Below, in pieces: positions 1,196-24,181 of a DNA stretch of 32,000 nucleotides. Made by a program: the position numbers and the translations under genes. The stretch lies in NCBI RefSeq assembly GCF_000016745.1, contig NC_009483.1, positions 4,110,001-4,142,000 on the forward strand. Reading direction: 5' to 3'. Numbering within the stretch: position 1 is the stretch's first letter; every line of letters begins with the position of its first letter. Origin of the DNA: Geotalea uraniireducens Rf4 (lineage in GTDB: Bacteria > Desulfobacterota > Desulfuromonadia > Geobacterales > Geobacteraceae). The notes under the pieces are model-generated. The model did not search any database, was not told where the DNA came from, and saw nothing but the letters and a program-made list of their open reading frames with translations.

Positions 1196-1543
1196 GCAGA
1201 TTGTCTCCCGCGTCCTGGTCACCAGTGCCTCATTCAATTGGTAGCGTCACCCTTTGACATACAGGGTAATCTGCCCATACGGCTGGCCCGGCGGGTCCAT
1301 TCACCAGGGTGTCGTATCCCCAATACGATTTTTCACGATATACATACACAGTGAACCATACATTTTAAAGGTTACAATATGCTAACGCTCGTTGATGGCT
1401 AAAATGGATGATGCGACTATAGGGGAAATAATCAGGCAGACAACGGGGGGATTGTCGGCAAACACTCGTGATGTCTCGTGTCAAGGGTTGCCATCTTTTC
1501 TTGTTGCCAGTTTCAGTTTGCGTTTCACTTGTTTCCTAAAAAA

Positions 1544-2170
1544 TCAATTTACTGACACGGACTCTATGAAGTCTTTTAGTTTTCCAACTAATGATTCTCG
1601 TTCTTTGGCAAAAAGTTCTGTCCCGTGAGCATCTCCCGGAAAAAATATTGTTTCTTTTGGCTCAATAAATATTTCATGCATTTTACGTGTATCGTCTGCC
1701 CCATCATCAGATTCAGAATTTATTAGTAATTTTGGTATTCTTATTTTGCACAATTCATCATTATTATAAAAGACGAATCCTTCATAACTGATAGGAGCAG
1801 AAAGAGCGACAACACCAACTATACAGTCGTTATCAATCGATCTTGCTGCGACTTTTATGGATGCAACACCACCTCTGCTCGCACCAATTAGGACGATTCT
1901 CTTTGCCCCTGAAGTCTTAACAAATGAAATCGCATCTTCTAGTGTTCTCGATTGATCATCCATATGCTGAAGATAATCATATGTAAGGATCATATGTTTT
2001 TCCGAAATTAGTTCATTAACTATCGGAAGCCATTCACTTTGATCATTGGTATCCATATTTGAAAATATAATTGCCGTACGGCCTGAACCATAAAGTTTGC
2101 CATTGGTATTCTTTTCTAAAGATGATTGTGAAATTGGAATGACGACTGATTTTGTGTTGATTAATTGCAT
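1544..2170 (-). CDS. alpha/beta hydrolase (small serine hydrolase, dienelactone-hydrolase-like), in an AT-rich insert
   Basis: Nucleophile elbow LIGASRGG, later acidic SESDDG and C-terminal GDAHG (Ser-Asp-His order). AAGGAT lies 9 nt upstream of the ATG. The composition is visibly AT-rich compared with the flanks. Confidence 0.65.
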   Translation of the reverse strand: MQLINTKSVVIPISQSSLEKNTNGKLYGSGRTAIIFSNMDTNDQSEWLPIVNELISEKHMILTYDYLQHMDDQSRTLEDAISFVKTSGAKRIVLIGASRGGVASIKVAARSIDNDCIVGVVALSAPISYEGFVFYNNDELCKIRIPKLLINSESDDGADDTRKMHEIFIEPKETIFFPGDAHGTELFAKERESLVGKLKDFIESVSVN

Positions 2171-2209
2171 TTTTGAAATCCTTAACTTTTCTTTGAGTTC
2201 TTTTCCTAA

Positions 2210-2304
2210 AACTCGTTATTGACCGCTTCACGTGCGCGCGTGAACTGGTGATCTACCCAAACGGAACATTTAGTCCGTGAACATGAAAAAACATAAGCAA
2301 TGCA
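2210..2304. repeat. Copy 1 (degenerate) of a ~95-nt two-hairpin repeat with a CTAC box; second copy at 23192-23289
   Basis: By eye it aligns end to end with 23192-23289, from aactcRttatt to gcaatgca. It contains ttcacg..cgtgaa inverted repeats, CTAC at 2253-2256 and a small second hairpin at 2262-2277. The 11-mer aactcgttatt occurs at both edges (2210-2220 and 2304-2314). Confidence 0.75.
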
Positions 2305-2572
2305 ACTCGTTATTAATCAGCCGCTGCCAACACCCCACCAGATTTGGATACCTCTATATGATCCTTAATATAACATTGACGTAACCTATCAAATTATAAA
2401 TAAAAGCGACATTGACCAACATGCCATTTGGGCATGTTGAAAAGTTTCTCGCCAACAACCTGGTCTGAAGTTTTTCCCGCTGAAGGGGCGCACAGGAGTG
2501 CCACCTACGCAGGTGAAAACCAATTAATGCGCAATATAAGCCGGCTTTTAATCAATGTCAAAAGGAGATTAC

Positions 2573-4470: not shown

Positions 4471-4671
4471 TCACCAATTGTCAAGCAGCCGGCAGTTGAT
4501 GGCATTCTTTACTTCCTGTCTGAATTTGAGAAGCATCTCTTGCTCTTCGCCGTACGTGCGGTTTATGTATTCGGTAAGAACGGAGTGCAATTTGATCAGT
4601 TTGTTGCGATCCCCCATGGAAGCCCTCAGTTCCCTACGAAGATCTTTAATCGGTATAGTCGGAATCGCCAT
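4471..4671 (-). CDS. hypothetical small protein (66 aa from ATG 4671; 80 aa if 4713)
   Basis: ORF 40 nt upstream of the HD-GYP gene on the same strand. AGAGGTG lies upstream of the ATG at 4671. No recognisable motif. Confidence 0.4.
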   Translation of the reverse strand: MAIPTIPIKDLRRELRASMGDRNKLIKLHSVLTEYINRTYGEEQEMLLKFRQEVKNAINCRLLDNW

Positions 4672-4873
4672 GTCGCACCTCTTGGGTCTGCTTGATAGAA
4701 TATATCCGACCATGTATTGTGAGGCCGCCTGAAAACCTTGATCCCCTCGCGTTCATTGATGCGTCCACGACTGAAATATCCGGACACTGTCATCTCATCT
4801 TTATCGGCGCCAAAGATTGTTACTTGAGTGAAATTACAAGAATTGGGAAGAATTCGGGGACGGACTGGTTTTT

Positions 4874-4990
4874 CAGGAGCGTGGGCATCCTGCCCGTGTT
4901 TCGGGCGGGTTTATGCCCGAATACGGTTTGCTTGTAACCAATTCAAGCGATACATCCGCTTGAAACGCAGGCAGGATGCCTACACTCCTG
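4874..4990. other. 117-nt three-way-junction secondary-structure element (ncRNA or ssDNA-structured repeat; strand unknown)
   Basis: P1 pairs 4874-4894 with 4970-4990 (19 Watson-Crick pairs, 1 G:T, 1 mismatch over 21 positions). P2 is 4900-4906/4915-4921 (7 bp) and P3 is 4942-4949/4957-4964 (8 bp). There is no flanking T-tract on either strand. Confidence 0.5.
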
Positions 4991-5039
4991 GATATGCTGA
5001 AGTGACGATCTGAGTCTTTACTTTCCGATGGCAAACTTA

Positions 5040-6452
5040 TCAGCTTCCTCCGCCCAGCACCTTGTAGAGGGTCGCCAGATTGTTGAGGCGGGCAAGACGG
5101 ACGCTGATCATGTTCTGCTGGGCACCGTAGAGGGAACGCTGGGAGTCGAGGACGTTCAGGTAGCTGTCCACCCCTTTTTCGTAGCGCGCCTGGGAGAGGT
5201 TGTAGCTCTCGCCCGTGGCGTCGGTAAGGGACTGCTGCGCCGCAAGCTGGTCGTCGATGGTCCCCCGCTGGGCGAGGGCGTCAGCCACTTCCCGGAAAGC
5301 GGTCTGGATGGACTTCTCGTATTGGGCCACGGCGATATCACGATCCACTTCCGCCACCTTCAGGTTGGCCTGTCTGCTGCCGGCGTCGAAGATGGGAAGT
5401 GTTATCTGCGGCGCGAAGCTCCAGGCAAAGGCCCCCCCCTTGAATAGCCCGGATAGGCCGTCGCTCCCGACGCCCACTGAGGAGGTCAGGGTGATGCGCG
5501 GGAAGAACGCCGCCCGTGCCGCGCCGATGTTGGCGTTTGCACCTTTGAGGAAGCCTTCGGCCTGGAGAATGTCGGGGCGGCGGAGCAATACGTCCGACGG
5601 AAGGCCGGGCGCGACATCCTTTAGTGCGGTGAGCGTTTCGGAGAGGGCTGCGGGAAGTAGCTCGGCCGGAACTGGGGAGCCGACCACCAGGTTCAGGGCG
5701 TTCTCGTCCTGGGCCACGAAGGTGGTGTAGCGGGCAATGTCGACCCGCGCCGTATCTACGCTGGTCTGGGCCTGATGGAGGTCGAGGGCGGAGGAGACAC
5801 CCGCCTCGACGCGGCTCTTGACAAGCTGGTAGGATGCCTGTTGACTCACCAGGGTCTCTTTGGCGAGCTGTAACCGCTCCCGGTCGGCGGCCAGGGCGAG
5901 CCAATTACCGGCCACCTCGGCCACCAGGCTGATCTGGACGCTGCGCCGGGCCTGCTCGGTGGCGAGGTACTGCTCCAGGGCCTGGTCCTTGAGGCTCCGC
6001 ACCCGGCCGAAGAGATCCAGCTCGTAAGAACTGACGCCGAGGCCGACGTTGTACTGGTGGCGGATCATTGCCTGGCCGCTACCTGAGAGGTCCGCCGGCA
6101 CCCTCTGGACGCTGCCGGCGGCGGAGGCATCGACCTTCGGGAAGAGGTCGGAACGCTGGATCTGGTACTGTGCCCGGGATCTCTCGATATTCAGGGCGGC
6201 AACGCGCAGATCGCGGTTGTTGTCCAGTGACAGGGCGACCACCTTGCGCAGCTGCGGGTCGAGGAAAAACTCAGCCCAGGGAATGTCGGCCACTGCCATG
6301 TCAGCCGGTTTCCCCGCAACGTCCTTGTATGCGGGGCCGCTCGGCCAGGCAGCGGGGACGGGCGGCTCGGGGCGGGTGTATTTCGGGGCCATGGTCGCAC
6401 AGCCGGCGAGGGCGCCGGCCAGAACGGCAACGATAACTGTAGTACGGATCAT
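5040..6452 (-). CDS. RND efflux outer membrane factor lipoprotein (NodT/OprM family)
   Basis: Start [18 protein letters not shown] (lipobox) with AGGAGA upstream. The two-repeat OMF architecture is present, including the typical C-terminal [17 protein letters not shown]. Confidence 0.9.
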
Positions 6453-6602
6453 ATTGTCATCTCCTGGAAAACTTAAAACCTTAACGGGCACGGAAAAGGC
6501 GGAAAAATCTGATAACGGCGGATTAATCAAAACCCCAAATACGGTTTATAAATCCGCTTTGATCCGTTTTTTCCGAGTTCAATTGGCCTTTTCGGGTTCA
6601 TC

Positions 6603-9600
6603 TCAAGATCCCTCCGGGGCGGGGGTAGCGGTTGCCGGTTCTACGGAAGGTTGCTCCGCCCGTTTCCTGGCAAAGAGTCTTGAGACCAGGACAAAGAAAA
6701 ACGGGATGAAGATCAGGTCGATGAAGGTGGCCGAGAGCAGTCCGCCGGTTACGGCGGTGCCGATGGCGTTCTGGGCTCCGGCCCCGGCCCCCTTGGTCAG
6801 GGCCAGGGGGAGTGTGCCGAAAAAGAACGCCAGTGACGTCATAATGACCGGCCGCAGCCTGATCTTCACCGCCGCCAGGGTGGCCTCCATCAATCCAAGC
6901 CCCTGCTGCATCTGGTCCTTGATGAACTGGATGATCAGGATGGCGTTCTTCGTGGAAAGCCCAATGGTGGTGAGGAGCCCGATCTGGAGATAGATGTCGT
7001 TGGGGAGCATCCGCAAGGAAACCGCGGTGACCGCTCCCACGAGCCCCAGCGGCAGCATCAGCAGGTTGACGAAGGGGATGGTCCAGCTTTCGTACAGGGC
7101 CGCTACGGCAAGAAACACCACCAGGAGTGAGATGGCATAGAGCGCCGGCGCCTGGGCTCCCGCCTTCTTCTCCTCGTAGGAGAGGCCGGTCCACTCGTAG
7201 CCGATCCCCTCGGGGAGCTTTGATGCCATCCGCTCCATCTCGGCCATCGCCTCGCCGGTGCTGACGCCCGGCGCCGCCTGCCCCTGGATCTCCATGGAGG
7301 GGATCCCGTTGTAGCGCTCCAGGCGCGGCGAGCCATACTGCCAGCGGGGTGTGGCGAAGGCGGAGAAGGGGACCATCTCCCCCCGGTTGTTGCGGACATA
7401 CCATTTGCCGATATCCTCCGGCACCATCCGGTATTTCGCCTCTGACTGGAGATAGACCTTCTTCACCCGGCCGTTCTGGATGAAGTCGTTGACATAGGCG
7501 CTTCCCCAGGCGGTGGAAAGCACGTTGTTGATGTCGGTGACCGACACACCCAGGCTGCCGGCGCGCACGTCGTCGATGTCGAGCTTGAATTGCGGGGTGT
7601 CGTCCTGGCCGTTGGGGCGGACCGCCATCAGCTTAGGGTTTTTCATTGCCATGCCGAGGAGCTGGTTTCGAGCCTCCATCAGCTTGTCGTGCCCCATCCC
7701 GCCGCGGTCCTGCAGCTGGAAGTCGAAGCCGTTGGCCATCCCCAGTTCGATCACCGCCGGCGGCGCAAAGGCGAAGGCCATCCCGTCCTTGATCCTGGAG
7801 AAGGCCCCCATTGCCCGGCCGGCGACGGCCTGCGCCTTGAGATCGGGGGTTTGCCGGAGTTTCCAGTCCTTGAGCTTGACGAAGGCAAGCCCCATGTTCT
7901 GGCCGCGGCCGGCAAAGCTGAAGCCGGCAACGGTGATCAGCGAATCGACCGCCTTTGTCTCCTTCTCCAGGAAGTGCTGCTCCAGCTGCTCGATCACCTT
8001 CAGGGTCCGTTCCTGGGTCGCCCCGGCCGGGAGCTGCACCTGGCAGATGATGAACCCCTGGTCCTCGTCCGGAAGGAAGGCGGTGGGACGCCGTACGAAG
8101 AGTACCACCATCACGACGACGATGGTTCCGTAAATGACCAGGTAGCGCACCGGCTTCCCGAACGAGCGGCGGACGAGCCCCTCGTACCGTCCCCTGCTGC
8201 GGTCGAACAGTCTGTTGAACCGGCGGAAGAACCCCCTGAACCAGCCGGACTCTCCCGGCGAATGCCCCGTCGGCACCGGCTTGAGCAGGGTCGCGCAGAG
8301 GGCCGGGGTGAGGATCAGTGCCACAAGAACGGACAGGATCATGGCGGAGACGATGGTGATGGAGAACTGGCGGTAGATGACGCCGGTAGATCCGGGGAAA
8401 AACGCCATCGGCACGAAGACCGCCGTCAGCACGGTGGCGATTCCGATAAGGGCGCTGGTGATCTGTCCCATGGACTTGATGGTCGCCTCACGGGGGGGGA
8501 GCCCCTCCTCGGACATGATCCGTTCCACGTTCTCCACCACCACGATGGCGTCGTCCACCAGGAGGCCGATGACGATCACCAGGGCGAACATGGTCAGGGT
8601 ATTGATGGAGAAACCGCTGGCGAACAGCACCCCCATGGTGCCCAAGAGGACCACCGGCACGGCGATGGTGGGGATCAGGGTGGCCCGGATGTTCTGCAGG
8701 AAGAGGAACATCACGATGAAGACCAGGAAGACCGCCTCGATCAGGGTATGGAGCACCTCCTCGATGGAGATCTTCACGAACGGGGTGGTGTCGTAGGGGT
8801 AGACGACCTTCACGCCGGGGGGACAGAACTTTTCCAGCTCCGCCATCTTCGCCTTCACCCGCTCGGCGGTGTCCAGCGCATTGGCGCCGGCCGCGAGCCT
8901 GAGCGCCATGGCGGCGACCGGTTTCCCCTTGTAGCGGGCCAGCATCTCGTAGTTTTCGGTGCCGACCTTGCTCTCGGCCACGTCCTTGAGCTTGACCGTG
9001 GAGCCGTCGGGGTTGGTGCGGAGCACGATGGCGTCGAACTGCTCCGGGGTCTGCAGGAGCGACCGGGCGGTAATGGTGGCATTCAGCTGCTGTCCCTGGC
9101 TGGCCGGCATGCCGCCCAGCTGGCCGGCGGAAACCTGGGCATTCTGCGCTTGGAGCGCGGTGATCACGTCGTTGGGGGTGAGCCTGTAGTTATTCAGCTT
9201 GTCGGGGTTCAGCCAGATCCGCATGGCGTTCTGGGAGCCGAAGACCGTCACCTCTCCGACCCCCTGCACCCGACTGATGATGTCCTGGATGTTGGAGACC
9301 ATGTAGTCGGTGAGATCGTTCCGGCTGAGCGTTCCGTCCTCGGAGACGAGGCCGGCGATCAACAGGAAGTTCCGGGTCGATTTGACCACCTGTATCCCCT
9401 GGCGCTGCACCACCTGGGGGAGGAGCGGCACGGCGAGCTGGAGCTTGTTCTGCACCTGCACCTGGGCCACGTTCGGGTCGGTACCCGCCTTGAAGGTGAG
9501 GTTGATCGCGACCGCCCCGGCCGAGTCGCTGGTGGACGACATGTAGAGGAGGTTGTCGATCCCGTTCATCTTCTGCTCGATGACCTGGGTGACCGTGTCC

Positions 9601-13531: not shown

Positions 13532-13562
13532 CCTGAGCAAAATGTTAAAGCAAGACATGACT

Positions 13563-13690
13563 CACGCGACGACGCCCCAAAAGTAGGCGCTATTAAGCGA
13601 CGAAAGGCTTTTAAACAAATTATTGGTTCATGGTTTTTTAAACGTTGCGTCGTCGCGTCGTCGCTTAAAAGCGCCTACTTTTGGTGCGTG
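13563..13690. repeat. REPIN-like doublet: two inverted 27-nt units, each beginning with GTAG, around a ~54-nt spacer
   Basis: Left arm 13577-13603 is ccaaaaGTAGgcgctattaagcgacga. Right arm 13658-13684 is its reverse complement with one mismatch. The outer cacgc/gcgtg sequences extend the pairing. Confidence 0.55.
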
Positions 13691-13733
13691 AAATACAATA
13701 TTTGGGTTCCGGCTTGTCCGGCTTAGGTTTATT

Positions 13734-14735
13734 CTACACGACCGGCACCCAGATCTCGGTGCGCAGATTCTCCGGCTTGGTCCGGCGCGGGTCGCGGTTC
13801 AGGTAAACCTCGAAGCATGGTTGGTCACGCAGGGTGCACCCACTGGTCGCAAGCCAGCCGGCGAAGATGTTCCGGTAAATCTCCGGCAGCCCGGTGTATG
13901 CCCCCTTGTGCAGAAACACGGCATAGCGACCCCCGGCAATGGTCTGGATCCCCACTTCCCCTTCCGGCTTCACATCCCCGGAAAAGGTGACACAGGCGTC
14001 ATAGCGGATCTTCTCCTCTGCCGTGATAGCCGGGTCGTCGTGACCGATACCGACCATCAGCGTCTCGCCGGTCATCAGGCGATTTTTGTAGGCAAAGCCC
14101 ATGAGCGCCTCCCAGGCGGCCGTGGCAGCCTCTCCATACGCTCCGGTCCGCCTCACGAACAGCACCTTGGTTTTCGAAAACTCCCTCATCTCTGGTTTCA
14201 TGACAATTATCTCCTTCGCAGTCGAATTTTCGGCAAAGGAAAGAATCGTTTCACGCTGCTGTCCACGGAACTCGCTGGGACTCATGCCGAACCGCTCGCG
14301 AAAGGCGCGGGTAAAAGCTGCCGGCGTCTCGTACCCCACCCCCAGAGCCGTATCCGTCACGCTTTCGCCTGTGAAGGCGATCCTCGTAGCGGCCCGTTCC
14401 AGGCGCAACCGGCGCACGTACCCGGTCACAGTCTCCCCTACATGGGCGCTGAAGATGCGATGGAAGTGGAACGGAGAGAGGCAGGCAACCTCGGCCAACC
14501 GTTCGATGGTAAGCGGTTCGTCCAGGTTCTTCTGGATGTGGATCAGAACCCGGTTCAGACGTTCCTGATAGCTGTTGGTGGTGCTGGGGCGCACTACGTA
14601 TCCCTCCTTGCCGAACATCACCGTAGCATCTTTACGATGAGCGGCGCTATTCCGTGCTTGCTGTTTTTTAAAGCGTACGTTGGCGGAAAGACGATAGCGC
14701 TGTGTCGTACTGTGGTCGCTTCCCTTCTTAACCAT
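13734..14735 (-). CDS. AraC-family transcriptional regulator with C-terminal GyrI-like effector-binding domain (Rob-like architecture)
   Basis: AraC HTH (LSPFHFHRIFSAHVGETVTGYVRRLRLERA ... AAFTRAFRERFGMSPSEFR) followed by a GyrI-like half (YAVFLHKGAYTGLPEIYRNIFAGWL). The start is uncertain between 14735 and the ATG at 14618. Confidence 0.8.
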   Translation of the reverse strand: MVKKGSDHSTTQRYRLSANVRFKKQQARNSAAHRKDATVMFGKEGYVVRPSTTNSYQERLNRVLIHIQKNLDEPLTIERLAEVACLSPFHFHRIFSAHVGETVTGYVRRLRLERAATRIAFTGESVTDTALGVGYETPAAFTRAFRERFGMSPSEFRGQQRETILSFAENSTAKEIIVMKPEMREFSKTKVLFVRRTGAYGEAATAAWEALMGFAYKNRLMTGETLMVGIGHDDPAITAEEKIRYDACVTFSGDVKPEGEVGIQTIAGGRYAVFLHKGAYTGLPEIYRNIFAGWLATSGCTLRDQPCFEVYLNRDPRRTKPENLRTEIWVPVV

Positions 14736-14755: not shown

Positions 14756-16036
14756 CTATAACGCCCCAAACAGATACCAGTCAGGAACGCCCCAAACGTT
14801 TTTGCGCAACTCGACTATTTCGTTACCCGGATAGACCACCAGCCCGACGTGCGCAGCTTTCGGATGCTCCGCCAAGAACATCTCCACGCTCCTGGCATCA
14901 GTGCTGGTCACGCGCTCAGAGGACTTGGCTTCGATGGGAATGATACCCCGTTCGTCGGCCAGGAGAAAATCCACCTCTAACCCGGCAGCAGTACGGTAAA
15001 AATACAGCTCCGGTTCCAGCGGCTGAAGTTGTTTCCACTTCAGCAGTTCGGCACAGACCCAACTCTCGTAGGCCGCGCCGCGACTGACGGAGAGTTCTCC
15101 CAATACGGCCCGGTTCACCCCCATATCGGGGAAATAGAGCTTCGGACTCTTGATCAGGCGTTTGCCGACGTTCTCGTGCCAGGGGGAGAGCAGATAGCAC
15201 TGGAACGACATGGTCAACAGCTCCAGATAACGCTTGAGCGTATTGACCGCCACTCCCAGACCCCGCGCCACCTCGCTAATTGAGAGCAAGTTGGCGGTAC
15301 GGCTGCACAGAAGCTTCTGCGCCAGGGCAAAGGTATCAATGTTCGCTACCTGCCCCACATCGGCAATATCGCGTTCCAGGTAAGTTTTGCGATAATCCTT
15401 GAGCCAGTTTAGCCGCGCAGTGTCACCTGTGCGTTGCCATACCGGTGGATAACCGCCCCACAATTGATGCTCATCCCGCACCTTCCTCAGGGTGCGCAAC
15501 CGTTGCGGCGAAGCCAGTTGCAGTCGCTCCACATCCTGGCGTGAAACAGCGTGATCACGCCATATCCGGGAAAGGAATGGCGGTTCGCCATCGCTGGTCA
15601 GCTCATGCAGCGAGAACGGGTACATCTGGCAGAGTGCCACCCGACCGGCCAGGGTCTCTTGGATGTTCTTCATCATCAGCAGTTGCGAGGATCCGGTCAT
15701 CACGAAGCGCTTGCGCTCGGCGACCGGCTTTTTGCATTCCCGATCCACCACCAGTTTCAGTGGATCAAACAGCTGAGGGATCTTCTGCACCTCGTCAAGC
15801 ACCACCAGCGGCGTTGTGATGCTTTCAAGGATCGACACTGCAGAACGCTGAAAACGGAGCCGTTCGTCGGGATCGTCGAATGATATGTAGGTAAAGGGAA
15901 GATTAAGCAGCTTGGGAAGCTGCACTTCGCAGAGGGTAGTCTTGCCGGTCTGGCGAGCGCCGGTCAGGGCTACAATCTGCTCATGTTGCAAACGGGAGAT
16001 TACGGTGTCGAGTATGGAACGTTTGATAGAGTTCAT
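14756..16036 (-). CDS. AAA+ ATPase of the AAA_14 / DUF4143 family
   Basis: Walker A LTGARQTGKTT, Walker B VVLDEVQ, and a C-terminal DUF4143-like block (KRLIKSPKLYFPDMG). Confidence 0.8.
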   Translation of the reverse strand: MNSIKRSILDTVISRLQHEQIVALTGARQTGKTTLCEVQLPKLLNLPFTYISFDDPDERLRFQRSAVSILESITTPLVVLDEVQKIPQLFDPLKLVVDRECKKPVAERKRFVMTGSSQLLMMKNIQETLAGRVALCQMYPFSLHELTSDGEPPFLSRIWRDHAVSRQDVERLQLASPQRLRTLRKVRDEHQLWGGYPPVWQRTGDTARLNWLKDYRKTYLERDIADVGQVANIDTFALAQKLLCSRTANLLSISEVARGLGVAVNTLKRYLELLTMSFQCYLLSPWHENVGKRLIKSPKLYFPDMGVNRAVLGELSVSRGAAYESWVCAELLKWKQLQPLEPELYFYRTAAGLEVDFLLADERGIIPIEAKSSERVTSTDARSVEMFLAEHPKAAHVGLVVYPGNEIVELRKNVWGVPDWYLFGAL

Positions 16037-16049
16037 GCGGTATATCTAT

Positions 16050-16092
16050 CAGAGTGATTGCAAAATTACAAGGTGAATTTGCAATCACTCTG
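16050..16092. other. 15-bp perfect inverted repeat (cagagtgattgcaaa N13 tttgcaatcactctg) between bla and the ATPase gene
   Basis: Seen directly in the sequence. It ends 14 nt upstream of the ATPase ATG and lies ~50 nt downstream of the beta-lactamase stop. No T-tract follows it on the minus strand. Confidence 0.5.
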
Positions 16093-16142
16093 AATTTTCT
16101 TCCATTTTCATTTTCTTCTTTTGTGGAAAATAAAACCCGGCG

Positions 16143-16931
16143 CTATTTCAGAATCCCCTTCTGCCGCAGCGCCGCCATCGTCAGCTCTTGCCGAAGCCGC
16201 CCATCTTCGGGCCTGGCAATCTCCATGTTCATGGCGAAAAACCAGACCTTGCCGCCAGTTTCCAGATAACCCACATACCAGCCGATCTGGGGTGAAACCT
16301 TCTGCCCCCAGCCGACTATCCCGGTCTTTGTCCGCAGGGTGTAGGCGGGGGTCTGCTCAATGATCATCAGTTTGCGCAGCAGTTCGTAGGAAGAGGCCTT
16401 GAAGGGGAACTCCCGGCGATACAACCGTTTCAGAAAGGCGATCTGCTCCTGGGCGCTGATCCGCAAAGCCCCTTCCAGCCAGAAGTTGCTCAGCTCCGGC
16501 CCAGCCTGTCCGTTGCCGTACTGTAGCTTCGCCAGCCAGGCGTTGTAGCGTTCCGTGCCCACCCGCCGGGCCAGATCCTGGTAAAACCAGATACACGAGG
16601 ATTTGAAGGCGCTTTCAAGCGTCTGGTCCTTGTTCCAGGCCGCCACACCTTTGTCCGTGCCATCCCATTTCAACACTTTCTCATCGGCAATGGCCCCCTC
16701 CTCCAGCGCAATCAGGGTATTGGGGATCTTGAAGGTGGAGGCGGGGAGCATCCGGGTGGCGGCGCGTTCGTCGTTGTGGCTGTAAGTGGTCGCGCCATCC
16801 AGTGACGAGATGACTATCGTTCCCCGGATGTTTTTTTCCTTGAACAGCCGGGCGATGCCGGCGTCTTCAGCAAAGGCGGAGGAGGTCAGGGTAAACAAGA
16901 GAAGGGCGAAAAATGAGAAAGTACGGGGCAT
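16143..16931 (-). CDS. class D (OXA-type) beta-lactamase, secreted
   Basis: Signal peptide MPRTFSFFALLLFTLTSSAFA, active-site STFK (PASTFKIPN), FKSSCIWFYQ (SxV-box position), YGNG and KTG (TKTGIVGW). It is 262 aa and stand-alone, not a BlaR sensor fusion. Confidence 0.85.
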   Translation of the reverse strand: MPRTFSFFALLLFTLTSSAFAEDAGIARLFKEKNIRGTIVISSLDGATTYSHNDERAATRMLPASTFKIPNTLIALEEGAIADEKVLKWDGTDKGVAAWNKDQTLESAFKSSCIWFYQDLARRVGTERYNAWLAKLQYGNGQAGPELSNFWLEGALRISAQEQIAFLKRLYRREFPFKASSYELLRKLMIIEQTPAYTLRTKTGIVGWGQKVSPQIGWYVGYLETGGKVWFFAMNMEIARPEDGRLRQELTMAALRQKGILK

Positions 16932-16978
16932 GGTGGTGTCCTTTCAGGGTTAGCAGGGTAGTTGCTGTAAGGTCTATT

Positions 16979-17908: not shown

Positions 17909-17921
17909 AATTTATCTTTCC

Positions 17922-17972
17922 AACCAAATAAAGTTTATGCGGTGCGTAGCGAAGCGGGGCACCGCATAAACT
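17922..17972 (-). terminator. Rho-independent terminator of the pentapeptide-repeat gene
   Basis: 14-bp perfect stem (17932-17945 / 17959-17972), followed on the minus strand by TTTATTTGG. Confidence 0.7.
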
Positions 17973-18010
17973 GGTGTTGAACTAAACCGCTTGTGCACAC
18001 TCTTGAGAAT

Positions 18011-19468
18011 TTAAGGTGACAGGCTACTTTTTGTTGCAGGCTTAAAAGTATCGGGTTTGGTAGCGTTCAGGAGTTCAGCAGTTACTCCGATCGCTCCGGT
18101 CAGGTTTGCATCTTTCATGTTTGCATCTTTCAGGTTTGCCTCCGTCAGGTTTGCGTCTGTCAGATTTGCATTTGTCAGGTCTGCTTCCGTCAGGTTTGCA
18201 TTGGTCAGATTGGCCTTGGAGAGGTTGGCTGATACCAGATTGGCTTTGGTAAGGTTGGCGCTTGTTAGATTATGGGATCTCAGATCAAATTTATTGAGAT
18301 CCATGCCGGAAAGATTCACTCCTTGCAGATTGGAAACTCTGCGCAGTTGATCACTTTTCAAATTGGTCACTCCGGTCAGCACGGCTCCGTCAAAATTTAC
18401 TTTGGAAAGGCTGGCGTTGGCCAGGCTGGCATTGGTCAGGTCGGCTCCGGAGAGGTTGGCACCGGAAAAGTTGGTGTTGTCAAGAGTGGCTTCGGCCAGA
18501 TTCAATGAATTCAGATCAAAGTTGCTCAAGTTGAGACCGGAAAGATTTACCCGCTTCAAGATGGCAGCACTGCAAAGCTGGTATTCCGTAATGTTTGTTT
18601 TAATCAGGATGGCAGCGGTGAGGTTGGCGTTGGCCAGGTTGGCGTAAGTCAGATTCGCTCCGGTCAGGTTTGCTCCGGTCAGATTAGCTGAGAAGCCCAG
18701 ATCGGCTGATTCCAGGCTTGCCTTGGACAGATCGGCCCCGGTCAAGTCGCGGGAACTGAAATCAAATCTGCTCAGGTTGAGCCCTGAAAGATTCACACCC
18801 AGCAGATTGTCGGCACTGCGCAATTGGGCGCTTGTTACGTTATTCACTCCCACCAGGACGGATTTGTTCAGGATGGCTCCTTGCAGTTTGGCTCCTTTCA
18901 GGTTGGCACCGTTCAGGTTAGCTTCTGTCAGGTTGGTATTGGTAAGGTTGGTATTGGTGAGGTTGGTATTGGCAAGGTTGGCTTTGGTCAGGTTAACGGA
19001 ACTCAGGTCAAATCCGCTGAGATCGAAGTTTGAAAGATTCACCCCCTGCAGATTGGAAGCCTGAAGCAGTTGTGCGTCCGTTAGACCGATCACTCCGGTA
19101 AGATTCGCATTGGCCAGGATGGTTCCCCTGAAATCTGCTCCTTCCAGATCCGCCCCGGACAGGCTGGCACCGGACAGATTAGCATGACTCAGATTGGCCA
19201 CTTCCAGATTGGCACTATTCAAGCTGGCACCGGACAGATCAGCATAACTCAGGTTGGCCATCATGAGATTGACAGCAGTCAGATTGGCAGTGCGTTTATC
19301 ACAATGGCTCCAGTCAACATCCGCTAATGGCGGATTACCACAAGATGCAAGTGCAGGGGAAATATTTGAAAGCAATACCATCAAGACAGCAGTAATGGCC
19401 AACAGATGAATCGAGAAGGCTGATTGAGCAAAATTGACATTATGTAACGATTTTACCATCATTCTCAC
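18011..19468 (-). CDS. secreted pentapeptide-repeat lipoprotein (485 aa)
   Basis: Signal peptide with lipobox ALASC, then almost the whole protein is A(N/D)L(S/T)x pentapeptides. These form four runs separated by linkers such as GVxxLTxAQL...GVNLSGxDLSxFDLSS. The annotated first codon is GTG; ATGs occur at 19462 and 19459. Confidence 0.85.
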   Translation of the reverse strand: MRMMVKSLHNVNFAQSAFSIHLLAITAVLMVLLSNISPALASCGNPPLADVDWSHCDKRTANLTAVNLMMANLSYADLSGASLNSANLEVANLSHANLSGASLSGADLEGADFRGTILANANLTGVIGLTDAQLLQASNLQGVNLSNFDLSGFDLSSVNLTKANLANTNLTNTNLTNTNLTEANLNGANLKGAKLQGAILNKSVLVGVNNVTSAQLRSADNLLGVNLSGLNLSRFDFSSRDLTGADLSKASLESADLGFSANLTGANLTGANLTYANLANANLTAAILIKTNITEYQLCSAAILKRVNLSGLNLSNFDLNSLNLAEATLDNTNFSGANLSGADLTNASLANASLSKVNFDGAVLTGVTNLKSDQLRRVSNLQGVNLSGMDLNKFDLRSHNLTSANLTKANLVSANLSKANLTNANLTEADLTNANLTDANLTEANLKDANMKDANLTGAIGVTAELLNATKPDTFKPATKSSLSP

Positions 19469-19556
19469 GAGCGCCCTAAGGGGACATTCTATGGTTCACC
19501 TGTCAACTGAAAAGCATAAAGAAACTGCGGCAATAGTAACTGATGTCGGTGAGGAT

Positions 19557-19784
19557 TCAAGGGGACAGAGAACATAAATCATCGGGAACGGCAATAAAAT
19601 GGACGTGTTTGGTCATGAGGCACCAGGAAAGAAATTGAACCCCTGCTCGCCCAGCCTCTTCAGAAAGAAAATGGAGGTATGCCCAACGTGCATCATCATC
19701 AGGGAAAATGTCTATTGATCTAACGCCACCCTGCCTCACATGATGAGGGTATCCGGGAACGATTAGGCGAGACATTCTTGGCAT
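19557..19784 (-). pseudogene. truncated RAYT / IS200-like Y1 transposase N-terminal fragment (75 aa)
   Basis: MPRMSRLIVPGYPHHVRQGG...IFPDDDARWAYLHFLSEEAGRAGVQFLSWCLMTKHVHFIAVP matches the N-terminal HUH-containing third of REP-associated tyrosine transposases. It stops long before the catalytic Tyr region. Confidence 0.6.
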
Positions 19785-20043
19785 AGCCAGAGATTATTAA
19801 ATGCCTTTTATGGAGTCAAGCTAAAACTGCCGTCGGAAATCAGAAGCTCTCTCGGTTAAATAAAAATACGTATTGATGTCACCAGATTTTCTCCCAAGTG
19901 GCGGTCAAGGTACAATTCCAGCTGTAGTTAAAGTAAACTTCGCTAAGCGGCCTGTGGGTGCCGATAGGGATCATGTCTCAACAGCGTACATTTAATGTAC
20001 TTGTAAAGTGTTGGACCTGATAGTTTCTTCATTTCGCTTGTAT

Positions 20044-20116
20044 GTACAACGGTTCGCGCAGTTGACCCGTTCGGGCAGCCTTTCCGCCCGACCGGTGTCC
20101 AACTGCCTGGTTGGGA
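20044..20116 (-). mobile_element. attC-like recombination site A1 (3' of the methyltransferase cassette)
   Basis: + strand reads GTACAAC, a 7-nt spacer, arm 20058-20076, a 9-nt loop, arm 20086-20106, a 3-nt spacer, then GTTGGGA. The arms pair except for one mismatch and unpaired T20096 and C20099, both on the 3' arm. It is near identical to 21835-21907. Confidence 0.6.
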
Positions 20117-20197
20117 CTTCGCATTTTTAGCCCTTGGCTTAGCCATTTCTGTCAGATGTGTAGGCCTGACACTTCCGTTACTTGCAGCTGCCCCTCA

Positions 20198-20944
20198 TCA
20201 CCGCGTCATCAGCGCGAACACACCCCAGCCTAGGTATTCACGCGTGTAAGCGGCGTAGCGCTCGGGTTCCGAGGTCAGTTTGGCTCGAACATCTTTCGCG
20301 AACTCGTCGTCGGGATTGGCTTCAAGCCATCGGCGCATGGTGAGCCACTTGGCCGCCTCGTATCTGTCCCAGCCGTCTTGGTCTGCCAAAACCATTTCCA
20401 CCACGTCGTAGTCGAGGTGGCCGAAAGACGCGAGAAGTTCTGGAAGCATGAGAAAGTCGGAGATTGAGCCGGCAAGACACCCCTTGGCAACATCTTCCGT
20501 CGGCGGTAACTGCCGCCAGTAGGGCTCGCCGATGAGGATGATCCCTCCGGTGCGGAGGCTCTGCGCCAGAAGCTCGATGGTGCCGACGACTCCCCCAGCG
20601 ATCCACGTGGCACCGAGACATGCTGCCACACCGGCCTTCTCGTCAGAGACGTAGCCGGCAGCATCGCCATGGATGAACTCGACTTGATCGGCGACACCGA
20701 GTTCTTCAGCGCGGAGTTTCGCTTGCTCGGTGAACAACTGGCTCATGTCGATGCCGGTGCCGATGACTCCGTAATCGCGTGCCCAAGTGCACAGCATCTC
20801 CCCCGAACCGCTGCCGAGGTCGAGCACTCGGGTCCCCGTTTCCAGACGCAGCGCCGCGCCGAGAGTGGCGAGCTTTTCGGGTGTGAACGGGTTATGGATG
20901 CGGTGAGCACTTTCGGTGATGTTGAAGATCCGTGGAATGTCCAT
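20198..20944 (-). CDS. class I SAM-dependent methyltransferase (cassette ORF, GC-rich)
   Basis: Motif I VLDLGSGSGEM, then GIDMS and VEFIHGDA. AAGGAG lies 10 nt upstream of the ATG. The ORF is bounded by attC-like sites on both sides. No DNA-methyltransferase (D/N)PPY motif was seen. Confidence 0.8.
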   Translation of the reverse strand: MDIPRIFNITESAHRIHNPFTPEKLATLGAALRLETGTRVLDLGSGSGEMLCTWARDYGVIGTGIDMSQLFTEQAKLRAEELGVADQVEFIHGDAAGYVSDEKAGVAACLGATWIAGGVVGTIELLAQSLRTGGIILIGEPYWRQLPPTEDVAKGCLAGSISDFLMLPELLASFGHLDYDVVEMVLADQDGWDRYEAAKWLTMRRWLEANPDDEFAKDVRAKLTSEPERYAAYTREYLGWGVFALMTR

Positions 20945-20986
20945 TGCAGAAAATCTCCTTACGGGTGTGAATAGATTCGGTCACGG

Positions 20987-21056
20987 CACTAACGGCTATG
21001 AGTGTGACCGGCGCGGCAGGTTTTTCGCCGCGACCGAGTCCACACGAGAGTTGGAA
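20987..21056 (-). mobile_element. attC-like recombination site A3 (3' of the Mrr-nuclease cassette)
   Basis: + strand reads CACTAAC, a spacer, arm 21002-21017, a 9-nt loop, arm 21027-21045, a spacer, then GTTGGAA. Unpaired A21033, A21037 and C21040 are all on the 3' arm. The sequence is unrelated to A1/A2 but the structure is the same. Confidence 0.6.
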
Positions 21057-21120
21057 CATCCCTTATACTCAAATGTGAAAATGTGAAGAGCGCCCCCAAA
21101 AGTTCCCCTGTCTTCGTTGT

Positions 21121-21822
21121 TCATTTTGGCTTTGAGCCCAGTTGGGAATTCAAGGTAGATTCGGCTTCACTAATCACTTCGGATGCTCTTGCGACGAATT
21201 CGTCCAGTGTATCCACAACAATTTGGCGTTGCCCGGTTTCGTCGAACTTGATCGGATAAGGCGGCTTCTGGAGACGCACGCGGTCGAAACCATACTCCAG
21301 GATTGCAAGAGTCCCAATTGTGCTTATGACGGATTTGCTGTCAACCCCAGGTAGCGGTTTGGATGACCAGATGTGAGGGTTTGTCTGCTCTGATCTAAAT
21401 AGATTGTGAAGTGCGTACTTGAGTTCAACAGCCCTTGTCTCGATGCAATGAAGCACTGAAGCCGACAGATCTTGCTGAGCTGTCTCTTTTAGCCCGTCGA
21501 GATCGGTAAGCGTAACGTTAGTTTTTTCCGCTGCCCGTACTGCACCACTTTGATAGCCGGAGGAAGAGATTAAAATGCCTCGATCTGCACCGACATCTTC
21601 TACAATGGAGCGGAGCACTAGCACCTTCTCTTTTGTCACGCTTGAGTTCCAGTGTTTACATTCGATTACCCATCTTGTTTCGAGGCCGAACTTCCTGAAA
21701 CGAACCCATACGTCAATCTTGTGATCTGTGCGGGCGCCAGAAACCTTTGCCTCGATATCAGCTTCGCAGCCGAGGCTACGAAAGAATTCTGCGGTCTCTT
21801 CTTGATATCGTCTCCAATTCAT
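21121..21822 (-). CDS. Mrr-cat (PD-(D/E)xK) restriction-endonuclease-domain protein with an unknown ~120-aa C-terminal domain (cassette ORF)
   Basis: HKIDVWV ... RWVIECKHW ... GADRGILISSSGYQSGAVRAAEKTNVTLTDLDGL fits the D...(E/Q)xK core and following helix of the Mrr_cat family. The ATG lies ~13 nt from attC-like site A2. Confidence 0.7.
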   Translation of the reverse strand: MNWRRYQEETAEFFRSLGCEADIEAKVSGARTDHKIDVWVRFRKFGLETRWVIECKHWNSSVTKEKVLVLRSIVEDVGADRGILISSSGYQSGAVRAAEKTNVTLTDLDGLKETAQQDLSASVLHCIETRAVELKYALHNLFRSEQTNPHIWSSKPLPGVDSKSVISTIGTLAILEYGFDRVRLQKPPYPIKFDETGQRQIVVDTLDEFVARASEVISEAESTLNSQLGSKPK

Positions 21823-21834
21823 AAATCACTCGTG

Positions 21835-21907
21835 TGCCAACGGCTCGCGCAGTTGACCCGTTCGGGCAGCTTTTCCGCCCGACCGGCGTCCAACTGCCTG
21901 GTTGGGA
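21835..21907 (-). mobile_element. attC-like recombination site A2 (3' of the AT-rich 355-aa ORF)
   Basis: It has the same architecture as A1. Comparing 21838-21922 with 20047-20132 gives 3 substitutions and one 1-nt indel. The unpaired bases are C21887 and C21890. Confidence 0.6.
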
Positions 21908-21986
21908 CTTCGCTTTTTAGCCTTCTGTCTTTTTACTTTTGTCTCGTGTCAAGGGCTGCCCCCCCATTTACATAAATTTACTGAAA

Positions 21987-23054
21987 TCAGTGCTGCTCCT
22001 CGCCAAAAAGTATTATTTCCAGTTTCTTTTTAAATTCATCGTAATCTTCAGCACGATTTCTGATGATTGAAACATCAAGAATGCTTTTGTTTTCACGCAA
22101 GTAGTCAACAAAATGGTCATTTTCATCTTCAGCAATATATACTTTGATAATATGATTTTTGCGAATCTTACTGCCAAATTCAGCCCATGTTGCGGCATCA
22201 TCTTCCTTGCTGAAATACACAATAAGTAAATCGCATAAAAACAGAAAGGCTCCAATTCTTGGGACAGCGGCCCCTCCAGCGCGAACATCTAATGCCTGAT
22301 ATATATTCGACATTCGACGTATAAAATCGCCATTCTTAGTCAAGTCACAGCAAAATATACCAACTTCTAGTTTGAGCCATGCTTGTTTGCCTATTGCTTC
22401 AGGCGTTAGAAATTCTTCAGAAAATATACTTTCTACTACTTCTTCCATTATCTTTGAAGGCATCAGACATTCGTCTTTTGTAGAATTTACTAAAAAACCG
22501 AGACGGGTCAGTTTTTGAAGGGACACAATTTTTAACGGATCACCGGGAGATACTAGAGACTTTACCTGAGCAGAGATTGAATTTGGCCCTTTGAATACAT
22601 GCTTAGAGGCTATATAGATTTCTTTTGCATAATCAATGTCTTCGCTTGAAAGCTCTTTTAGTGATTTCAATATATGTATTTTATAAACAGGGTTTATTTT
22701 ATTCAGTATGACTGACTTCAGTAAGGTTGAGTAGTATTGCAGCTTAACTTGCTCATCGTCAGCAATAGCACTTGATAAAAGCGAACAATAATCCTCTATC
22801 GAAAATTCGTTGTTTATCAGTTTATCTTGTTCCGACTCTGGAACTCCTTCAAGTAACAGCTTGTTAAATTCGTCTATTCGAGACTCGTTACGGTCTTGGA
22901 TATATCTCCTACCGTGTTCAAACAGAACTTTGCCTATTTCATACATGGCGCTTCCACCCGGTACAATCAACCCCAAACCTTCCTTAACGCCGATTTCAGC
23001 AAGAGTGATGGTAGATTTTTTGGACCGCTGTATACTTGTTTCCTTATTTGGCAT
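21987..23054 (-). CDS. hypothetical 355-aa protein, strongly AT-rich (foreign cassette-like ORF)
   Basis: Long uninterrupted ORF in the most AT-rich stretch of the window. AAGGG lies 8 nt upstream of the ATG. I recognise no motif with confidence. It is followed 3' by attC-like site A2 and preceded 5' by the two-hairpin repeat. Confidence 0.7.
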   Translation of the reverse strand: MPNKETSIQRSKKSTITLAEIGVKEGLGLIVPGGSAMYEIGKVLFEHGRRYIQDRNESRIDEFNKLLLEGVPESEQDKLINNEFSIEDYCSLLSSAIADDEQVKLQYYSTLLKSVILNKINPVYKIHILKSLKELSSEDIDYAKEIYIASKHVFKGPNSISAQVKSLVSPGDPLKIVSLQKLTRLGFLVNSTKDECLMPSKIMEEVVESIFSEEFLTPEAIGKQAWLKLEVGIFCCDLTKNGDFIRRMSNIYQALDVRAGGAAVPRIGAFLFLCDLLIVYFSKEDDAATWAEFGSKIRKNHIIKVYIAEDENDHFVDYLRENKSILDVSIIRNRAEDYDEFKKKLEIILFGEEQH

Positions 23055-23191
23055 AGATCAACCCTTTGTAAATGCTTAACTGTCTTTTGCTGTAGGAAAT
23101 TTCTTAAACACTCAAGGTTATCAGAAATCCTCCGCAAATGATTCGAAGCAGTTGTGACATACAATTATCATCTATATTTCAATCTGGGACC

Positions 23192-23289
23192 AACTCATTA
23201 TTCACCGGTTCACGCGCATGCGCGCGTGAACCGGTGATCTACCCAAATGGAATATTTATCCAGTGAACATGAAAAAAATCTGCAATGCA
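23192..23289. repeat. Copy 2 (intact) of the ~95-nt two-hairpin repeat with a CTAC box
   Basis: Hairpin 1 is a 16-bp perfect stem with a 4-nt loop (23202-23237), followed after 1 nt by CTAC (23239-23242). Hairpin 2 is 23248-23262. The element then reads gtgaacatgaaaaaaa...gcaatgca and aligns with 2210-2304. Confidence 0.75.
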
Positions 23290-23389
23290 TATCTGATCAT
23301 GCCCCGATAATCTCCTGTCATTTCAGCCGCCTTGTGTTGAGGGTAGCACAAAATTCAGCGTTATCCATGAGAAGAGCGTCGAGCCTCCA

Positions 23390-24181
23390 TCAAAACAAAC
23401 TCAACAGCATCTTGGTCCCCATCACGATCAGCAGCAGGGCAAAAATCTTCTTCAATTTATCAATCGGCAGGCTGTGCGCCAACTTTGCACCAAACGGGGC
23501 GGTCGCGATACTGGCAGCGGCGATACCAATCAGTGCGGGGAGATAGACGAAGCCGAGGCTGTACGGGGGAAGCGGGGCTGACAGGCCGTTGACCACATAA
23601 CCGACCGCACCGGCCAGGGCGATGGGGAAACCGATTGCTGCCGAGGTGCCGATTGCACGATGAATGGCGACGTTGCACCAGACCAGAAACGGCACCGACA
23701 TGCTGCCGCCGCCGATGCCGACCAGGCTGGAGACGCCGCCGATCAGTCCGCCGACGCCGAACATCGCTGTCTGTCCGGGGAGCTGGCGATGCGGTTTGGG
23801 CTTGATGTTGAGCAGCATCTGGGTGGCGACGTAGTAGAGGAAGACGACGAAAAACACTTTGAGGAAGCGGGTGGAGAGCTGGGCGGCGACCCATGAGCCG
23901 CCGAAGGTGCCGACCATGATGCCGAGGCTGATGCGCCGCACCACGGGCCAGTCAACGGCGCCGCGCCCATGGTGGGCCCGCAGGCTGGAAATCGAGGTGA
24001 ACATGATGCTGGCCAGGGAGGTGCCGAGGGCCAGATGGAGGATGTGCCCCTCCGGCAGGTGCTGGGCGGTGAAAATAAAGGTAAGTACCGGCACGATCAC
24101 CAGACCGCCACCGACACCGAGCAGGCCGGCCAGTACCCCTGCGAACGCCCCAAGGGCGATATACATCAACCAAACTGTCAT
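23390..24181 (-). CDS. TauE/SafE (DUF81) family anion exporter
   Basis: Polytopic membrane protein with the duplicated glycine motifs LLGVGGGLVIVP and LVGIGGGSMSVP. The ATG at 24181 has GGGGAGAAG upstream. Confidence 0.8.
   Translation of the reverse strand: MTVWLMYIALGAFAGVLAGLLGVGGGLVIVPVLTFIFTAQHLPEGHILHLALGTSLASIMFTSISSLRAHHGRGAVDWPVVRRISLGIMVGTFGGSWVAAQLSTRFLKVFFVVFLYYVATQMLLNIKPKPHRQLPGQTAMFGVGGLIGGVSSLVGIGGGSMSVPFLVWCNVAIHRAIGTSAAIGFPIALAGAVGYVVNGLSAPLPPYSLGFVYLPALIGIAAASIATAPFGAKLAHSLPIDKLKKIFALLLIVMGTKMLLSLF

Follow-up and report, generated by a model that had tools for sequence, protein, structure and literature searches.

Probable integron attC sites bounding three gene cassettes, without a neighbouring integrase gene, in the chromosome of Geotalea uraniireducens Rf4

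We analysed a 32-kb window of the Geotalea uraniireducens Rf4 chromosome (the whole stretch studied here, 32,000 nt; contig NC_009483.1, positions 4,110,001 to 4,142,000) and found three structurally alike sites, S1, S2 and S3, which, with a probability of about 90%, are integron attC sites bounding three gene cassettes on the minus strand. The cassettes lie in a chromosomal intergenic region, and because no integrase gene is present nearby, the cluster is assigned to the CALINs (attC-site clusters that have no integron integrase). We observed the structure of the sites and their strand asymmetry, their membership in site families, the cassette junctions, the presence or absence of cassettes among relatives, and a family link to a true integron.

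Results

Three sites with attC architecture delimit single-gene cassettes

A preliminary description, made from the sequence alone, had placed three hairpins at 20044–20116, 20987–21056 and 21835–21907. The attC top strand corresponds to the minus strand of the window and the bottom strand to the plus strand, and single-stranded DNA (ssDNA) folding of the plus strand reproduced the three hairpins together with the architecture described for them. On this strand each site comprises xxxxAAC, a 5–7-nt spacer, a stem arm, a 9-nt loop, the second stem arm, a 3–4-nt spacer and GTTGGRA. The unpaired bases that had been named on the 3' arm of the plus strand were recovered exactly: T20096 and C20099 in S1, which also has a T20070 × C20092 mismatch; A21033, A21037 and C21040 in S2; and C21887 and C21890 in S3, again with one mismatch. 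The bulges of all three sites are confined to one arm (R''-L''), the arrangement that gives attC sites their strand polarity. When the end pairs were joined through AAC/GTT on the minus strand, S1, S2 and S3 all conformed to the RYYYAAC/GTTRRRY core. The sites are as follows, a slash within GTT marking the crossover.

20044..20116, minus strand: attC S1 (S-type), the last canonical site; R'' TCCCAAC, R' GTTGTAC; G/TT between 20050 and 20049; from ssDNA folding and covariance model R1
20987..21056, minus strand: attC S2; R'' TTCCAAC, R' GTTAGTG; G/TT between 20993 and 20992; from covariance model R1 and a family copy in contig L151
21835..21907, minus strand: attC S3 (S-type); R'' TCCCAAC (21907 to 21901), R' GTTGGCA (21841 to 21835); G/TT between 21841 and 21840; from ssDNA folding and covariance model R1

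S1 and S3, already described as near identical, are 95% identical over 81 nt without a gap (repeat family D5), while S2 is unrelated to them in sequence and shares their architecture. A scan for single hairpins of 55–90 nt, folding at −13 kcal/mol or lower and closed by AAC/GTT, returned four on the plus strand of the window, all within 17918–21907, against a chance mean of 0.67 per 32 kb in 30 block-wise dinucleotide shuffles. Searching the window with Rfam 15 gave no match at the gathering score, and a scan for tRNAs was likewise empty.

Each site was found, as had been proposed, just 3' of one minus-strand open reading frame (ORF), and each cassette consists of one such ORF followed by its own attC site, bounded by G/TT.

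21841..23193, minus strand: cassette A, 1353 nt; ORF 21987–23054 (355 aa, ~37% GC) and attC S3
20993..21840, minus strand: cassette B, 848 nt; ORF 21121–21822 (233 aa, Mrr_cat restriction-endonuclease fold, Pfam E=5.9e-19) and attC S2
20050..20992, minus strand: cassette C, 943 nt; ORF 20198–20944 (248 aa, class I SAM-dependent methyltransferase, ~60% GC) and attC S1

The lengths of 848 and 943 nt agree with the earlier estimate, and direct counting placed the ORF starts 18 and 48 nt past GTT, soon after the crossover as had been noted. The three ORFs also differ as strongly in composition as had been noticed, with GC fractions of ~0.37 (355 aa), 0.50 (233 aa) and 0.60 (248 aa). A promoter scan gave no promoter-like match upstream of the cassette ORF starts. 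No family of Pfam, NCBIfam or PADLOC was matched by the 355-aa protein. For none of the cassette proteins did PADLOC yield a convincing assignment to a defence system, its mad2 match on the 248-aa protein spanning the methyltransferase domain only. Exact-protein look-ups returned no new contexts for the methyltransferase and the 355-aa protein, and no contig for MerR and TauE.

The preliminary description had overlooked two features: an attI-like site at 23188–23290 that heads the array (P1, below) and a conserved 50-nt extension 5' of the outer sites. This extension (~50 nt, upstream of R'') lies at 21908–21959 and 20117–20132 in the window and also accompanies S-type copies in contigs L013–L049 (L-numbers denote contigs from other assemblies, and P-numbers such as P0050 proteins of related loci).

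21908..21959, minus strand: conserved 5' extension of S3, CAGCCCTTGACACGAGACAAAAGTAAAAAGACAGAAGGCTAAAAAGCGAAG; common to many S-type copies; from copy alignment and conservation profile

The extension falls into two subfamilies, with TTGACA and GGCTAAAAAG present in both; the promoter scan gave it no sigma-70-like promoter score.

Covariance models recognise the sites on one strand

The core of S1/S3 was searched as an exact 20-mer in one genome per species, which yielded 37 genome matches with ~31 true copies, nearly all of them in Geobacter, Geobacteraceae or Desulfuromonadales assemblies. Four of the 37 were dropped, L015, L034 and L043 as chance matches inside genes of unrelated taxa and L041 as a truncated copy. 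Hairpin scans of the 20-mer loci also revealed a second site family, T-type, with the architecture of the S-type and a different sequence. From six S-type and four T-type sites, all from other genomes and with no S2-family sequence among them, we built alignment A2 and covariance model R1. The common structure consists of a 4-bp R box, 6 bp, a bulge, 3 bp, a bulge, 3 bp, a 1×1 mismatch, 6 bp and a 9-nt loop; 97% of the cells are paired, and eight pairs show compensatory (both-side) changes.

Applied to the window with filters off, R1 scored S1 at 94.7 bits (E=1.6e-28), S3 at 92.8 bits and S2 at 31.1 bits (E=1.3e-7), with no other match below E=1 in the whole window. Since the S2 family lay outside the training set, S2 was recognised by its architecture and polarity and not by similarity to its neighbours, and the earlier view of the middle site as unrelated in sequence and alike in structure is upheld. 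The matches were on the minus strand only, the plus strand of S1–S3 scoring at most 14 bits (S3, 14.3). In 80 related contigs R1 found 78 sites. Their alignment A3, fitted to the structure of the model, had 94% of cells paired (20–37% in slid controls) and compensatory changes in 16 of 22 pairs; its score was reached by none of 500 shuffles, and the AAC/GTT pairs were retained in 71–74 of the 77 distinct sequences. A second covariance model, R2, was applied to the window and to class 1 integron regions. It detected no canonical site besides S1–S3 in all 32 kb of the window. Two class 1 integron regions were scanned, and in both the top R2 match coincided in position and strand with a genuine attC, the one following aadA5 (E=0.014) and the one following aac(6')-IIc (E=0.16).

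Conservation of the S-type sites ends at the crossover

Among 35 S-type copies the consensus fraction was 0.89–0.97 up to GTT and 0.4–0.6 directly past it, and the four bases that follow were R (94%), R, R and Y (83%), giving GTTRRRY. An ORF in the same orientation precedes 32 of the 35 copies, and clustering of the encoded proteins gave 29 groups without relation to one another; on the far side, 21 ORFs begin soon past an S-type GTT, and no two of these are related. The outcome that the preliminary description had named as counting against itself, a dispersed repeat unrelated to single ORFs, does not describe these copies, with their co-oriented ORFs and GTT boundary. The S-type loci mostly hold one copy per 8-kb stretch in ~30 Geobacteraceae assemblies, and about half of them are without a second canonical site.

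Cassettes are polymorphic among related genomes

The array is headed by the site P1 and forms part of a block specific to this strain.

23188..23290, minus strand: P1, a non-canonical P-type site heading the array; GC-rich palindrome CACCGGTTCACGCGC..GCGCGTGAACCGGTG, then AATAATGA, R' GTTGGTC (23194 to 23188); crossover between 23194 and 23193
19569..23303, no strand assigned: strain-specific block of 3,735 bp, comprising P1, the three cassettes and a distal remainder; from blastn against L007 and L009
19569..20043, minus strand: distal remainder of the block; non-coding DNA and a truncated IS200/RAYT-like fragment, with no attC after it

Contig L002 is 100% identical to the window over the Mrr cassette, S2 and the beginning of cassette C, but there these follow straight after a P-type site, the one found in the window as P1, and not after S3. 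The alignments of L002 and the window overlap in GTTGG only, which puts the crossover there. Because cassette A is absent between the P-type site and Mrr in L002, the window has an extra unit of 1353 nt (the 355-aa ORF and S3, 23193 to 21841) inserted at the G/TT of P1.

In the syntenic contigs L007 and L009 the flanks are 94–99% identical to the window and the block 19569–23303 is missing, with ~129 nt in its place. The syntenic comparison that the preliminary description had called for thus found the flanking genes to be conserved core synteny and the cassettes not. The 8.7 kb upstream of P1 (TauE, HxlR, PNPOx, nitroreductase, MBL and others) are collinear and 94–98% identical with these cassette-free relatives. 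The truncated fragment, at the distal edge of the block, encodes 75 aa of an IS200/RAYT-like Y1 transposase (19557–19784, minus strand, 260 nt from S1) with an HVH (HUH-like) motif visible by eye; the identity is tentative, since the Pfam Y1_Tnp match is only at E=0.1.

The site families are linked to integrons with an integrase

As the preliminary description had reported, the window holds no tyrosine recombinase gene. Pfam scans detected none among its ORFs of 110 aa or longer, tblastn of the window with IntI1 (a query 100% identical to real IntI1) and with the clade-specific integrases described below gave no match, and a hidden Markov model (HMM) of 29 full-length integrases of that clade, run against all six frames, had a best E of 4.6, with no intI or remnant of one. 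On the side of the array head these searches extended over 8.7 kb, which is 1.3 kb less than 10 kb, and on the opposite side over 20 kb. An intI, an attI and an array lying adjacent, which make a complete integron, do not occur together in the window; they do in the related complete integrons L151, L150 and L154 elsewhere.

In L044 an S-type site stands in an array divergent from an internally deleted intI. The deletion joins the N-terminal 80 aa to the last 25 aa. Searching with this fragment led to a large clade of ~430-aa integron integrases with an N-terminal extension, three of which scored 352–358 bits on TIGR02249 (cut-off 265), the L151 integrase at 352. In the integrases of this clade (proteins P0050, P0062 and P0007) the extension occupies ~115–130 aa ahead of the region that matches TIGR02249. 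L151 is a complete integron whose array holds a co-oriented S2-family site (49.8 bits); compared with S2 of the window, this copy shows a compensatory stem change and diverges directly past GTT. The complete integron L150 gave no canonical R2 match in the 1.5 kb of its array that was examined.

Further observations concern the neighbourhood of these integrases. A DUF5710-like gene (102–131 aa) always lies between intI and attI in the integrons of the clade, whether complete or degenerate:

L151 9534–9890, minus strand
L150 1003–1311, minus strand
L154 2701–3087, minus strand
L044 4479–4844, minus strand

Past this gene come several copies of a ~16–18-bp palindromic motif (like GCATCTAATATTAGATGC) and then the attI core. 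Contigs L055, L062, L085 and L086 have the DUF5710-like gene, the palindromic motifs and a P-type site without intI. The protein may be an integron-associated DNA-binding accessory protein. In L154, three more tyrosine recombinase genes and an IS91-like transposase gene lie directly downstream of intI (4585–9161), and beyond them comes another set of canonical attC sites, this one on the strand opposite to the intI-proximal array. An IntI1-like match in L033 was rejected as IntI: it scored 208 bits against the cut-off of 265, lacks the IntI insertion and lies beside an IS91-like transposase. S-type sites and an integrase of the clade also occur under a Pedobacter label (L014, L016 and protein P0012; 'Pedobacter sp.' metagenome-assembled genome SO_2017_CLC_61), through either mis-binning or cross-phylum transfer.

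A P-type site with an attI-like core heads the array

The P-type family has ~100 copies in metagenomes, in as many different contexts. Conservation in these copies ends at GTT, followed by the rest of GTTRRRY and then by an unrelated ORF. Eighteen contigs contain P-type and canonical sites together, and in 17 of them the two kinds share one orientation. The sole variable position of the stem covaries (G-C 55, A-T 8, T-A 2, G-T 9, one mismatch). No subfamily of the P-type sites has an AAC in the 5' half or a pairing partner for R'. The core consists of an L-box AAC, a 13-nt spacer and G/TTRRRY, and the last 19–20 nt of P1 agree with the attI cores of L151, L150, L044 and L154, four integrons of the integrase clade that are independent of one another:

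P-type: GTGAACCGGTCAATAACGA/GTT
L151: CTAACTGCTCAATAACGA/GTT
L150: CTAACTGGTCAATAAGTA/GTT
L044: CTAACCGGTGATTTACGA/GTT
L154: CTAACGGGTGATTAACGA/GTT

P1 resembles an attI in its place at the array head, in its GTT crossover as seen in the comparison with L002, and in its core match, yet it is not beside intI, its family occurs in ~100 contexts, and its hairpin is foreign to attI sites. P1 adjoins neither an intI nor a DUF5710-like gene in the window. From its sequence we read P1 as an attI-core-like site heading the cluster, with predicted activity. This reading fits the position of the newest cassette (the 355-aa ORF and S3) directly beside P1, as insertion by attI × attC recombination predicts.

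A second P-type unit lies 18 kb from the main cluster.

1440..2321, minus strand: second P-type unit, with site P2 (~2206–2321, repeat D6); R' GTT at 2212–2210; tandem second tail at ~2304–2321

P2 heads a low-GC ORF for a 208-aa alpha/beta-hydrolase-like protein (1544–2170, minus strand), after which comes a degenerate S-type remnant. The remnant comprises part of the 5' extension known from S-type sites, together with GACAATCCCCCCGTTGTC, an R''/R'-like sequence that has no hairpin. The unit at 1440–2321 looks like a decayed single-cassette unit.

On sequence grounds we put forward, tentatively and at rather less than even odds, that the P-type sites (P1, P2 and the ~100 metagenome copies) may form an undescribed class of integron site, in which an attI core has been made portable by fusion to an inverted L-box arm. 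Lacking R'', such sites would, like attI, presumably take part in recombination as double-stranded DNA. Were this so, a P-type site would be a cassette-capture point for clusters without an integrase, the integrase acting in trans, and one such capture would be the event that, relative to L002, placed the 355-aa cassette precisely at P1.

Other features of the window

The hairpin scan returned one further hairpin.

17918..17982, minus strand: S0, a possible further attC; GTTCAAC, a perfect 14-bp stem, GTTGGAA; 3' of a pentapeptide-repeat gene

S0 is classed only as possible because neither R1 nor R2 detects it. It follows the gene for a pentapeptide-repeat protein of 485 aa (416 aa in L007), the two together occupying 17918–19468, and both gene and site are kept in the cassette-free relatives; an S0-related hairpin precedes a cassette in L033.

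Two other strain-specific indels relative to L007 lie at 13534–14735 and 14820–16976, one of them with an AraC/GyrI-like regulator that carries a Cass2 (integron-associated effector-binding) domain, the other with a class D beta-lactamase-like protein and a DUF4143 ATPase; no attC-like sites lie alongside either indel. Three inverted repeats, I1 (4874–4990), I2 (13572–13689) and I10 (16049–16093), were inspected and found not to be attC-like. I1 has 41-nt arms and an 87% identical, non-syntenic copy in L007 (7400–7460), and it may belong to another small repeat family.

Discussion

Weighing the attC assignment

The preliminary reading of the sites as attC, of the ORFs as cassettes and of the cluster as a CALIN is borne out by the strand-specific covariance model, the GTT boundary, the polymorphism relative to L002, the absence of the block from L007 and L009, and the link to L151. 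Several points weigh on the other side. The irregularities of the stem are spaced 3 bp + 3 bp, while the aligned attC of aadA5 shows ~6 bp between its extrahelical bases; class 1 attC sites in general have two such bases ~6 bp apart. R2 recognised class 1 attC sites weakly and missed several known ones, the E-values of R1 and R2 are rough, and the 94% pairing of A3, like its other figures, is somewhat inflated because A3 was fitted to the structure of the model. The S-type collection was seeded by an exact 20-mer, which limits its diversity. P1, at the head of the array, is without a canonical R''. The assignment of S1–S3 as attC is a model-based one, resting on R1 and R2, both built in this analysis, together with context, and the connection to IntI is one that we infer from other genomes with the same site families.

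If the hairpins were instead REP-like or terminator-like intergenic repeats, perhaps tied to the RAYT-like fragment, their resemblance to attC would be fortuitous. The dispersal of the S-type copies, mostly single and half of them without a second canonical site, would suit such repeats, as would the fragment only 260 nt from S1 and the position of the sites 3' of ORFs in the manner of terminators. Against this stand the fixed boundary, with conservation ending exactly at GTT and GTTRRRY following, the fit of the sequence-unrelated S2 to the same strand-specific model, the cassette swap with its crossover in GTTGG, and the occurrence of the same site families in arrays beside intI. Nor do the hairpins look like terminators: no T-tract follows them on the coding strand, and a terminator scan of the minus strand over 19400–23500 found no terminator-like site; the RAYT-like match is only at E=0.1 on a 75-aa fragment. 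We consider this explanation largely refuted and highly improbable.

That the cluster is the distal part of a complete integron, with intI just beyond the window, is somewhat less remote and still very unlikely. The window reaches only 8.7 kb upstream of P1, and assemblies often break in arrays; these 8.7 kb, however, are ordinary chromosome, collinear with the cassette-free relatives at 94–98% identity, R2 sees no other canonical site in the 32 kb, and neither intI nor the DUF5710-like gene of the clade adjoins P1. Mobilisation of the modules by another site-specific system, such as Xer-dependent dif-like modules or transposition of the MITE (miniature inverted-repeat transposable element) type, would account for the lack of an integrase in cis and for the non-canonical palindromes of the P-type sites, and IS91-associated tyrosine recombinases do lie beside some arrays (L033, L154). 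It is contradicted by the layout of the sites, which is the four-box R''-L''...L'-R' with AAC/GTT and not the 11-6-11 layout of dif, by the lack of terminal inverted repeats and target duplications, and by the presence of the same site families in arrays of bona fide integrons. The L033 recombinase, moreover, is below the IntI cut-off and is associated with an IS91 transposase, not with the sites as such. We give this alternative hardly any weight.

Proposed mechanism

With S1–S3 taken as attC sites, the cassettes would move as established integron biology leads one to expect. The bottom strand, which is the plus strand of the window, would fold into a hairpin with AAC/GTT pairing between R'' and R', and the choice of strand would be dictated by the extra bases of the R''-L'' arm. 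An integron integrase acting in trans would cut the bottom strand at AA/C, equivalent to G/TT on the top strand, and could thereby either release a circular cassette or bring one in. This integrase may be encoded elsewhere and belong to the clade described above; the sites may still recombine and the cassettes may be expressed, all of which goes beyond what was observed directly.

Comparison with known systems

A CALIN is defined as two or more same-strand attC sites, separated by less than 4 kb, without an integron integrase, pseudogenes being sought within 10 kb, and 83% of CALINs hold fewer than six sites (Cury et al. 2016, PMC4889954). The present cluster resembles them in its three minus-strand sites 848 and 943 nt apart, in its single-gene cassettes with non-resistance functions, in having no intI or recognisable intI pseudogene in the window (8.7 kb on the head side), and in its small size of three canonical sites. 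It differs in being headed by the attI-core-like P1, a feature outside the CALIN definition, and in being a strain-specific block in a conserved neighbourhood. The 95% identity of S1 and S3 and the lineage-wide family to which they belong recall the species-specific attC families of sedentary chromosomal integrons, for example the VCRs (Vibrio cholerae repeats) of Vibrio; unlike those, the cluster has three cassettes, no integrase and a mixture of S, S2 and P-type sites, and elsewhere the S-type sites are mostly solitary or in small clusters. Common to the sites and to the attC sites of class 1 integrons (59-be, 59-base elements) are RYYYAAC...GTTRRRY, an L''/L' pair whose L'' has an extra base, spacers that stay unpaired, a variable loop and the G/TT crossover. 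The present sites differ in their stem, which runs 6 bp, bulge, 3 bp, bulge, 3 bp, mismatch/bulge, 6 bp, with three extra bp below L'', and in low sequence similarity (17 and 13 bits).

Sites derived from attI are known to end cassettes or to sit inside the arrays of mobile integrons (delta-attI-type gene cassettes, PMC12901181), and an attG insertion route has been described by which cassettes disseminate into genomes outside the integron platform (Loot et al., 10.1101/2022.09.11.507474). P1 and P2 are comparable to the former in carrying the attI core (AAC-13 nt-GTT), AACCGGTGAATAATGA/GTT against CTAACTGCTCAATAACGA/GTT in the attI of L151, and in standing at cassette boundaries remote from intI; the location of the present cassettes outside an integron platform fits the dissemination described for the latter. 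The P-type sites differ from attI and delta-attI in adding an inverted L-box arm, which gives a perfect GC-rich hairpin, in their ~100 environmental metagenome contexts, and in that their activity is a prediction.

Significance

CALINs are common and already described, so the present findings change no concept. They provide a CALIN example whose cassette junctions are exact, which shows a natural insertion/absence polymorphism and which is tied to one specific clade of N-terminally extended integron integrases. The analysis also yielded the site families S, T, S2 and P, the attI core of an integron clade and a candidate portable attI-like site, which could help to explain how clusters remote from an integrase gain cassettes.

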